DNA of 64,000 nucleotides. It comes from a virus (taxonomy: Duplodnaviria; Heunggongvirae; Uroviricota; Caudoviricetes). This document shows positions 39,001-42,000 of the stretch, piece by piece. Each line of letters opens with the position of its first letter. Positions within the stretch are counted from its first letter, which is position 1. Location: the IMG/VR virus record IMGVR_UViG_2718218305_000006; one strand, 5' to 3'. Position numbers: made by a program.

Positions 39001-42000
39001 TGGGACATGCTGACCCACCCGCGCTACGGAATGGGAAAACGCCTGGGGGCGGCGGATGTGGACAAGTGGGCGCTGTATGCCATTGCGCAGTACTGCGACC
39101 AGACGGTCCCGGATGGTTTCGGGGGCACAGAGCCGCGGATGACTTTCAATGCGTACCTGTCACAACAGCGTAAGGCGTGGGACGTTCTCAGTGATTTCTG
39201 CTCGGCGATGCGCTGTATGCCGGTATGGAACGGGCAGACGCTGACGTTTGTGCAGGACCGTCCGTCAGATGTGGTGTGGCCCTACACCAGCAGTGATGTG
39301 GTGGTGGATGATAACGGCGTGGGGTTTCGCTACAGCTTCAGCGCCCTGAAGGACCGCCACACGGCGGTGGAGGTGAATTACACCGACCCGCAGAACGGCT
39401 GGCAGACCTCCACGGAACTGGTGGAAGACCCGGAAGCCATACTGCGCTACGGACGCAACCTGCTGAAGATGGATGCGTTCGGCTGCACCAGTCGCGGTCA
39501 GGCCCACCGTGCCGGGCTGTGGGTGATAAAGACCGGACTGCTGGAAACGCAGACGGTGGATTTCACGCTCGGGTCACAGGGGCTGCGTCACACACCCGGT
39601 GACATTATTGAAATCTGTGATAACGACTATGCCGGGACCATGACCGGCGGACGTATCCTGTCCATCGATGCCGCCAGCCGCACCCTGACACTGGACCGTG
39701 AGGTGACCCTGCCGGAGACCGGTGCCGCCACGGTGAACCTGATTAACGGCAGCGGTAAGCCGGTGAGCGTGGCCATCACTGCACACCCCGCGCCGGACCG
39801 GATACAGGTCAGCACCCTGCCTGATGGCGTGGAGACATACGGTGTGTGGGGGCTCTCCCTGCCGTCACTGCGCCGTCGCCTGTTCCGCTGTGTCTCCGTC
39901 CGGGAAAACACGGACGGCACCTTTGCCATCACGGCGGTGCAGCACGTACCGGAAAAAGAAGCCATCGTGGATAACGGTGCCCGCTTTGAGCCGCAGTCAG
40001 GCACCCTGAACAGCGTCATCCCTCCGGCAGTGCAGCACCTGACGGTGGAGGTGAGCGCAGCTGACGGTCAGTATCTGGCGCAGGCGAAATGGGACACGCC
40101 GAAGGTGGTGAAGGGCGTGAGCTTTATGCTTCGCCTGACCGTGGCCGCGGATGACGGCAGTGAGCGGCTGGTCAGCACGGCCCGGACGACGGAAACCACA
40201 TACCGCTTCACGCAACTGGCGCCGGGGAACTACAGGCTGACAGTCCGGGCGGTAAATGCGTGGGGGCAGCAGGGCGATCCGGCGTCGGTATCGTTCCGGA
40301 TTGCCGCACCGGCAGCGCCGTCACAGATTGAGCTGACACCGGGCTATTTTCAGATAACAGCGGTCCCGCGTCTTGCGGTGTATGACCCGACGGTACAGTT
40401 TGAGTTCTGGTTTTCGGAAACGCGGATTACCGATATCAGGCAGGTTGAAACCACAGCCCGCTACCTTGGCACGGGGCTGTACTGGATAGCCGCCAGTATC
40501 AATATCAAACCGGGCCATGATTATTACTTTTATATCCGCAGTGTGAACACCGTTGGCAAATCGGCATTTGTGGAGGCTGTTGGCCAGCCGAGTGATGATG
40601 CATCCGGCTATCTGGATTTTTTCAAAGGAGAGATAGGGAAAACCCATCTGGCTCAGGAGTTGTGGACTCAGATTGATAACGGTCAGCTTGCGCCTGACCT
40701 GGCGGAAATCAGAACGTCCATCACGGATGTCAGTAATGAAATCACGCAGACCGTCAATAAGAAACTGGAAGACCAGAGTGCAGCGATCCAGCAGATACAG
40801 AAGGTTCAGGTTGATACAAATAATAACCTGAACAGCATGTGGGCAGTGAAGCTGCAGCAGATGCAGGACGGACGCCTTTATATTGCGGGTATCGGTGCCG
40901 GTATTGAGAACACCTCTGACGGCATGCAGAGTCAGGTGCTGCTGGCGGCAGACAGGATTGCGATGATTAATCCTGCGAATGGCAACACAAAGCCGATGTT
41001 TGTTGGTCAGGGCGATCAGATATTCATGAATGAAGTGTTCCTGAAATATCTGACGGCTCCCACCATTACCAGTGGCGGCAATCCTCCGGCATTTTCCCTG
41101 ACATCAGACGGAAAGCTGACCGCTAAAAATGCGGATATCAGTGGCAGTGTGAATGCGAACTCCGGGACGCTCAACAACGTCACGATTAACGAGAACTGTC
41201 GGGTTCTGGGAAAACAGTCCGCGAACCAGATTGAAGGCGATCTCGTTAAAACAGTGGGCAAAGCTTTCCCCCGGGACTCCCGTGCACCGGAACGGTGGCC
41301 ATCAGGGACCATTACCGTCAGGGTTTATGACGATCAGCCGTTTGACCGGCAGATTGTTATTCCGGCGGTGGCATTCAGCGGCGCTAAACATGAGAGAGAG
41401 AGCATACTGATATTTACTCCTCATGCCGTCTGATAGTGCGGAAAAACGGTGCTGAAATTTATAACCGTACCGCGCTGGATAATACGCTGATTTACAGTGG
41501 CGTTATTGATATGCCTGCCGGTCACGGTCACATGACGCTGGAGTTTTCGGTGTCAGCATGGCTGGTGAATAACTGGTATCCCACAGCAAGTATCAGCGAT
41601 TTGCTGGTTGTGGTGATGAAGAAAGCCACCGCAGGCATCAGTATCAGCTGAATTTTATAACCCATATACGGGCGCCAGAAATGGCGCCTTTTTTATTGCA
41701 GAAAAGCGAGAGGTAATTATGCGTAAACTTTATGCCGCCATTTTGTCCGCAGCCATCTGTCTGGCCGTATCCGGCGCGCCTGCATGGGCGTCTGAGCAGC
41801 AGGCCACGCTGAGCGCGGGGTATCTTCATGCCCGGACGAGCGCTCCCGGTAGCGATAATCTTAACGGGATTAACGTGAAATACCGTTATGAATTTACGGA
41901 CACGCTGGGGCTGGTGACGTCATTCAGCTATGCAGGAGACAAGAATCGCCAGCTTACCCGTTACAGCGATACCCGCTGGCATGAAGATTCCGTGCGTAAC

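Follow-up and report, generated by a model that had tools for sequence, protein, structure and literature searches.

The J gene of the window (the whole 64-kb stretch of DNA analysed here) carries one GA unit too many, and we consider it very probable (roughly 0.9) that this extra unit is an inherited slippage lesion, which made J a pseudogene within a decaying Sp12-type prophage. The lesion would go back to one replication-slippage event, by which a GA was gained in the (GA)4G tract encoding Glu-Arg-Glu 1074-1076. The prophage concerned would have been the Sp12-type one in an ancestor of typical E. coli O157:H7, from which the (GA)5 allele would have been passed on vertically ever since. The tail module had by then already lost K, nearly the whole of I and half of L, leaving the J lesion as one more hit that was probably neutral. 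Later on, rare slippage or conversion from paralogous J copies may have altered the length of the tract, presumably with no selectable phenotype.

The tract, read directly from the plus strand, is GAGAGAGAGAG, i.e. (GA)5G, and lies inside J (Table 1), just where the sequence-only reading had placed it. It is the only run of five dinucleotide units in the window, which contains eight other runs of four units. By our own arithmetic, chance alone should produce about 0.7 runs of five units in 64 kb, which makes the run by itself unremarkable; the notable point is the exact coincidence of the indel with it. Translation of J starts at the ATG at 38173 (MGKGGGK) and remains in frame for 1076 native codons, ending with AKHERE, in which H1073-E1074-R1075-E1076 are the last native residues. 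Ten aberrant codons and a stop at 41431-41433 follow, giving a product of 1086 aa, or the 1087 codons originally noted when the stop is counted. The C-terminus of J resumes in another frame at the CAT at 41403 and ends with ISIS and a stop at 41649-41651. The remainder had at first been put at about 70 codons, but 82 codons are present; the 71-codon ORF in the ORF list (41436-41651) is only the GTG-initiated part of this end. By eye, no Shine-Dalgarno-like or ribosome-binding motif was found ahead of the GTG at 41436. In the Sakai annotation, the stranded end is entered as a separate 71-aa CDS, ECs_2233. This ORF is a fragment of J and not a gene in its own right.

Table 1. Coordinates of the J lesion and of related features in the window
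Feature	Position	Strand	Description and basis
Portal gene, frameshifted	28570..31154	+	Strain 9000 (L003) 14471-17055, 'phage portal protein, frameshifted'
L remnant	37548..37985	+	L codon 121 joined at 37910/37911 to the last bases of I
J pseudogene, 5′ frame	38173..41433	+	Translation; gpJ structure match; Pfam; orthologue annotated as frameshifted
(GA)5G tract	41392..41402	+	In-frame (GA)4G encoding Glu-Arg-Glu plus one GA; +2 frameshift
Stranded J 3′ end	41403..41651	+	82 codons and stop in the other frame; translation
lom (Ail/Lom outer-membrane protein)	41719..42318	+	Directly 3′ of J; ORF list, orthologue annotation

In silico deletion of one GA unit produced a single J protein of 1158 aa, which bears out the expectation that one unit fewer would restore the full-length gene. 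This protein is colinear with lambda gpJ: in a phmmer search against PDB, residues 1-835 aligned to positions 1-836 of chain 8iyk_J (E = 0) and residues 865-1157 to positions 838-1131 (8IYK; 8XCG and related entries represent the same protein). Compared with the J of strain TX 265-1, which is intact, it shows 2 residue differences. The restored protein matches PF24801, PF13550, PF24421, PF24489, PF09327 and PF12421, all above the curated cut-offs. The families FNIII-A_GpJ, Phage-tail_3, Ig_J, Ig_J_second and Phage_Tail_Tip lie on the 5′ frame, and Ig_GpJ_C (PF12421), the C-terminal receptor-binding domain, occupies residues 1028-1158 of the restored J. The order of domains (FNIII-A, Phage-tail_3, two Ig, tail-tip fibre and C-terminal receptor-binding domain) is as in lambda gpJ, and so is the synteny from the tape measure H through M and L to J, lom and stf. 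In the window the genes run H, M, L remnant, J, lom, stf, which is the lambdoid tail operon (H-M-L-K-I-J-lom-stf) minus K and I. By its architecture and synteny the restored gene is clearly a member of the lambda gpJ family. The position of lom anchors the J-lom-stf synteny.

Unlike lambda gpJ, the J of the window has a receptor-binding domain of another sequence type and is broken after residue 1076. Lambda gpJ presumably lacks the HEREH motif and hence the GA tract. The uninterrupted frame of a functional gpJ is absent here, as the +2 shift in the tract brings in the stop that ends at 41433. With translation predicted to halt 10 codons past the tract, 82 of the 131 residues of the receptor-binding domain are gone and, because of this loss, J as found is a pseudogene. 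The truncated protein would probably be unable to bind a receptor.

Judged by its sequence, the window is the Sp12-type cryptic lambdoid prophage of E. coli O157:H7. Strain 9000 of E. coli O157:H7 matches it at 99.8-99.99 % identity, and many further O157:H7 genomes are close to 100 % identical to it over 12 kb. The region corresponds to the Sakai prophage Sp12 plus its tandem neighbour; the EDL933 counterpart of Sp12 is, we assume, part of CP-933O. The orthologues of J in EDL933, strain 9000, EC4115 and TX 376-2 bear the NCBI label 'gpJ, frameshifted'. Sakai Sp12 is the same prophage at the same locus, and its (GA)5 tract and J 3′ end are identical to those of the window. The two differ in other respects. 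Sakai Sp12 has intact L, K and I, whereas the window, EDL933, EC4115 and strain 9000 share a deletion from L to I (L′-K-I). The body of the Sakai Sp12 J is mosaic and 96 % identical to the window (from J into stf), and it is annotated as three CDS, whereas J has a single frameshift in the window and in the same three strains.

The frameshift in J is one of several lesions in this prophage. With Sakai Sp12 (L001) as the BLAST reference with intact L, K and I, positions 37501-37910 of the window correspond to 609-1018 and positions 37910-38096 to 2658-2849 of L001. The deletion spans 1,640 bp and has removed the C-terminal half of L, the whole of K and nearly the whole of I; the orthologue of the remaining part of L is annotated as 'minor tail protein L, incomplete'. 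The frameshift in the portal gene, for which window positions equal the coordinates of L003 (strain 9000) plus 14099, is a further and independent lesion marking the prophage as cryptic. According to the annotation of the orthologues, the antirepressor is interrupted by IS1203 and ISEc8 is inserted within an IS256-family element. Asadulghani et al. 2009 (PMC2669165) described Sp12 as defective in host specificity, portal, head, repressor and integration, and detected no excision, replication or packaging of it. The defect of J is thus already known from the Sp12 literature (PMC2669165) and from the RefSeq/NCBI 'frameshifted' annotation. Our literature search for Sp12 together with frameshift gave no match.

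To survey the alleles, we searched 5,426 complete E. coli genomes for the tract with 40 exact bases on each side. The exact (GA)5 91-mer was present in 215 records and the exact (GA)4 89-mer in 892 records from diverse E. coli lineages; with the same flanks, (GA)3 occurred in three records and (GA)6 in none. All sampled (GA)5 rows were O157:H7 or unlabelled strains. The carriers include Sakai, EDL933, EC4115, TW14359, strain 9000 and TX 376-2, and the Z-series genomes match over 12 kb spanning the tract. About 98 % of the O157:H7 records with the allele have (GA)5, and three variants were seen at the Sp12-type locus of typical O157:H7: (GA)4 in TX 265-1, a 10-nt tract in strain 1613 and (GA)3 in NCCP 13946, the last in a Sakai-like Sp12. 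When a 549-nt region of the window was set to (GA)4 and searched again, the exact context was recovered from five records only, namely DEC5B, 493/89, PV15-279, F3113 and one typical strain, TX 265-1. Strain 1613, with the tract GAGAGAGAGA, came next. Among the phage-collection matches listed (e.g. PhiR5_1, VT1-Sakai), all were 2 or 3 bases shorter than the aligned query, which would be consistent with (GA)4.

These counts leave practically no room for a sequencing or assembly artefact, in which the true tract would be (GA)4 and J intact. Indels in short repeats are a common type of error, and some of the rare alleles (SCU-484, perhaps also 1613) could indeed be assembly errors. However, the identical (GA)5 is found in all 215 complete-genome records, which come from many laboratories and include independently sequenced genomes such as Sakai, EDL933, EC4115, TW14359 and strain 9000, and the allele is phylogenetically coherent. 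The sequencing error first considered for this position can therefore be set aside. Two (GA)3 sequences were not regarded as meaningful alleles: the assembly of SCU-484 is full of frameshifts, and in C25 the frame seems to be compensated by another shift some 40 codons further upstream, which scrambles the domain.

The polarity of the change is given by comparison of J alleles in related prophages, which had been proposed as a check. At the same locus, O55:H7 DEC5B and 493/89 have (GA)4 and an intact J of 3477 nt, along with the partial L and the lom-stf-DUF1076-nleG7-IS256-dinI genes that also neighbour J in the window. In the alignment of the L′ junction region, two gap columns are the sole difference between these strains and the window. 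Strain 493/89 has been called an intermediate ancestral strain in a cited paper. In PV15-279, which comes from a paper on beta-glucuronidase-positive O157:H7, and in F3113, the last 888 nt of J are left at the Sp12-type locus, with (GA)4. The allele tracks the lineage, with (GA)4 marking the O55:H7, 493/89, PV15-279 and F3113 genomes and (GA)5 marking typical O157:H7. Since DEC5B and 493/89 have the deletion and yet (GA)4, the L′-K-I deletion is older than the insertion of GA, and therefore the tail module was already non-functional by the time the frameshift arose. Of the possibilities raised from the sequence, a fixed inactivating mutation is the one that agrees with both the 215 (GA)5 records and the (GA)4 at this locus in O55:H7 and 493/89.

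The same alleles speak against recoding, by which full-length J would be made from (GA)5 through programmed -1 ribosomal frameshifting or transcriptional slippage. A -1 shift within the tract would rejoin the two frames, with HEREEH replacing HEREH (one extra Glu). However, no slippery heptamer of the type X XXY YYZ was found by eye in AAACATGAGAGAGAGAGCATACTG, and transcriptional slippage has been described chiefly on long homopolymers. Moreover, the phage homologues and the earlier-branching O55:H7 and 493/89 alleles have J in one frame, so the two-frame J is derived and unconserved. We regard recoding as extremely improbable.

The tract has also changed in the opposite direction. TX 265-1 has (GA)4 and an intact J, though it is nested among (GA)5 strains. 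Its J-lom haplotype is shared by 31 records (EC4115, TW14359 and TX 376-2 included) except for a 2-nt gap and one mismatch, the latter deduced from the bit score. TX 265-1 and TX 376-2, which has (GA)5, have in common an IS3-family insertion between L′ and J, and over 16.3 kb they differ only in the GA unit, one SNP in lom and a 16-SNP conversion patch in L′. The SNPs within its J are mosaic and do not tell an ancestral (GA)4 from a reverted one. Given the shared insertion and the near-identical 16-kb locus, TX 265-1 represents an apparent back-change; a reversion of (GA)5 to (GA)4 by slippage, or else by conversion from one of its many J paralogues, is the most likely history. The strain belongs to tir genotype 4 with the A allele, and tir-A strains are flanked on the tree by T-allele strains, an indirect placement that is consistent with reversion. 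The restored J of TX 265-1 still lies behind the L′-K-I deletion and the IS element.

A gain of GA was found in another prophage as well. The Sp4-type prophage at serT of PV15-279 has a J with (GA)5. The Sakai orthologue of this J, ECs_1121, has (GA)4 and is intact; apart from the GA unit, only seven SNPs separate the two genes over their last 1.2 kb. Because the Sp12-type remnant of PV15-279 itself has (GA)4, this gain is an independent event. Together with the changes in TX 265-1, 1613 and NCCP 13946, it marks the tract as a recurrent indel hotspot, one that is genuine yet weak.

Another view is that (GA)5 spreads among J paralogues mostly by gene conversion, with the pool of prophages both seeding and repairing the lesion. 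Over some 460 nt spanning the repeat (41293-41756), J genes that are dissimilar elsewhere have one and the same sequence, and the J of Sakai Sp12, overall only 96 % identical to that of the window, has the same 3′ end and (GA)5. In TX 265-1 the conversion patch in L′ lies beside the restored J. On the other hand, the (GA)4 of the Sp12-type remnant in PV15-279 means that no donor within the genome was available at that locus, and no flanking SNP marks a conversion at the repeat of TX 265-1. We consider conversion as the prevailing route unlikely, but with a real chance of being correct; it complements a slippage origin of the inherited lesion rather than competing with it. An Sp4-type paralogue as the donor of both the (GA)4 and the lom SNP of TX 265-1 was rejected, as the Sp4-type SNPs at 41757-41922 are absent.

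The repeated changes in length raise the question of whether the tract is a phase-variable contingency locus, that is, a selected and reversible on/off switch of the receptor-binding tail tip. The indel coincides exactly with a dinucleotide repeat, and the gain or loss of a unit toggles J between the in-frame (GA)4 and the out-of-frame (GA)5, much as gain or loss of units within coding regions shifts the frame at contingency loci of Haemophilus, Neisseria and Campylobacter. As at those loci, forward, backward and independent changes have all been seen at the J tract: the back-change in TX 265-1, the independent +GA elsewhere and the (GA)3 and 10-nt alleles. Unlike those loci, the J tract is short, five repeat units being few beside known contingency tracts, and in more than 200 related genomes its variation is rare and lineage-bound. 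A single allele accounts for about 98 % of the O157:H7 records, with three variants at the locus and not one (GA)6; length polymorphism among close isolates is infrequent and the allele follows the lineage. The prophage around the gene is, moreover, inactive whether or not J is intact. With L, K and I deleted and the portal frameshifted, the tail tip and head are unbuildable whatever the state of J, and TX 265-1 has its restored J behind the same deletion and an IS element. In Sakai, Sp12 shows neither excision nor replication nor packaging (PMC2669165). As K, most of I and half of L are gone, the portal is frameshifted and IS elements are inserted, the 'ON' state of J has nothing to switch on. 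A short tract, with about 98 % of records of one allele, bound to lineage and presumably without a phenotype in either state, is no contingency locus, and we hold such a switch to be very unlikely. Of the reversible switch suggested by the sequence-only reading, the reversibility stands, with repeated changes of length and one apparent back-change, and the functional switching does not.

It is a long shot that the (GA)4-5 tract, as found in J receptor-binding domains of this type, acts as a hotspot of recurrent slippage across the EHEC prophages, where it would repeatedly knock out and now and then restore J and so modulate which recombinant lambdoid or Stx phages infect. If this were true, restoration of J by back-slippage or by conversion between paralogues would affect the infectious output of the 'defective prophage pool'. 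For the prophage of the window, restoring J would leave it unrescued. The importance of the lesion lies mainly in annotation, the gene being the J pseudogene of a cryptic Sp12-type prophage. Our addition to what was known is small and consists of the order of the lesions (deletion, then frameshift), the value of the tract as a lineage marker, and one reversion and one independent recurrence. The last two illustrate slippage and recombination between prophages shaping the decay of O157 prophages, and the allele of the tract, (GA)4 versus (GA)5, provides a clean lineage marker.

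Immediately upstream of the J pseudogene, the tail-gene cluster is interrupted by a 1,640-bp deletion, which joins codon 121 of L to the 3′ end of I and has taken out K entirely, nearly the whole of I and half of L. A matching partial L is also present in O55:H7 DEC5B, 493/89, EDL933, EC4115 and strain 9000. K and I are intact in Sakai Sp12 and NCCP 13946, and in Sakai L is intact as well. The intact K and I therefore imply that the L-K-I segment of these two loci was regained later through recombination between prophages. Coordinates of this and the other features are listed in the table.

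Features of the prophage region (window coordinates)
Feature	Position	Remark
IS1203	20668-21881	coordinates carried over from strain 9000 annotation
Portal gene	28570-31154	
Tandem repeat in portal gene	30097-30689	162-bp unit, 3.7 copies, 97% matches
Tape-measure gene	34134-37214	3081 nt
L remnant through deletion scar up to J start	37548-38172	junction 37910/37911
Private SNP in J	41216	A in window, T in 10/10 compared loci
lom 5′ part	41727-41870	~49 SNPs
stf	42377-43696	
Extra stf bases of note	43328-43418	
ISEc8	46167-49825	coordinates carried over from strain 9000 annotation
Neighbouring prophage ORFs	50301-54377	- strand; 424, 83 and 814 aa

Compared with TX 376-2, whose locus is near-identical, the L remnant of TX 265-1 (4202-4385 of its locus, L007) has a cluster of 16 SNPs. 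This cluster is a short gene-conversion patch with a paralogous prophage as donor, and it adjoins the restored J. The SNPs in the 5′ part of lom, which separate typical O157:H7 from the earlier-branching genomes DEC5B, 493/89, PV15-279 and F3113, represent a recombination patch starting immediately 3′ of J.

Within the J pseudogene itself, the private SNP changes Leu1015 to Gln. The J of strain C25 (L013) is listed in the annotation as intact, but about 40 of its residues are out of frame; the shifted stretch runs from an indel about 40 codons 5′ of the tract, close to the CCCCCGGG run, to the (GA)3 tract. Either two frameshifts compensate each other here, or the stretch is the product of paired assembly errors.

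The orthologue of the portal gene, which lies in the same prophage as J, is annotated as frameshifted, and the window gene contains a near-perfect tandem repeat. The tape-measure gene has the same length in the window, EDL933 and strain 9000, versus 3243 nt in Sakai, EC4115, TX 265-1 and 1613, an in-frame length polymorphism of 162 nt. At 1314 nt, the tail-fibre gene stf of strain 9000 is longer than that of EDL933, Sakai and TX 265-1 (1224 nt). The aligned window sequence is identical to strain 9000 here, with about 90 bases more than the other three. A 45-nt collagen-like tandem repeat (GAGPQGPKGETGAAGP) is located at the extra bases.

Regarding insertion sequences, IS1203 interrupts the phage antirepressor gene, and at the end of the prophage ISEc8 lies within a transposase gene of the IS256 family. 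The neighbouring prophage displays three long ORFs in the window, where strain 9000 has only truncated fragments of integrase and RecE; the window's strain and strain 9000 therefore differ at the point where the two prophages meet. In 493/89, the integrase, excisionase and exonuclease genes of the corresponding segment are all intact.
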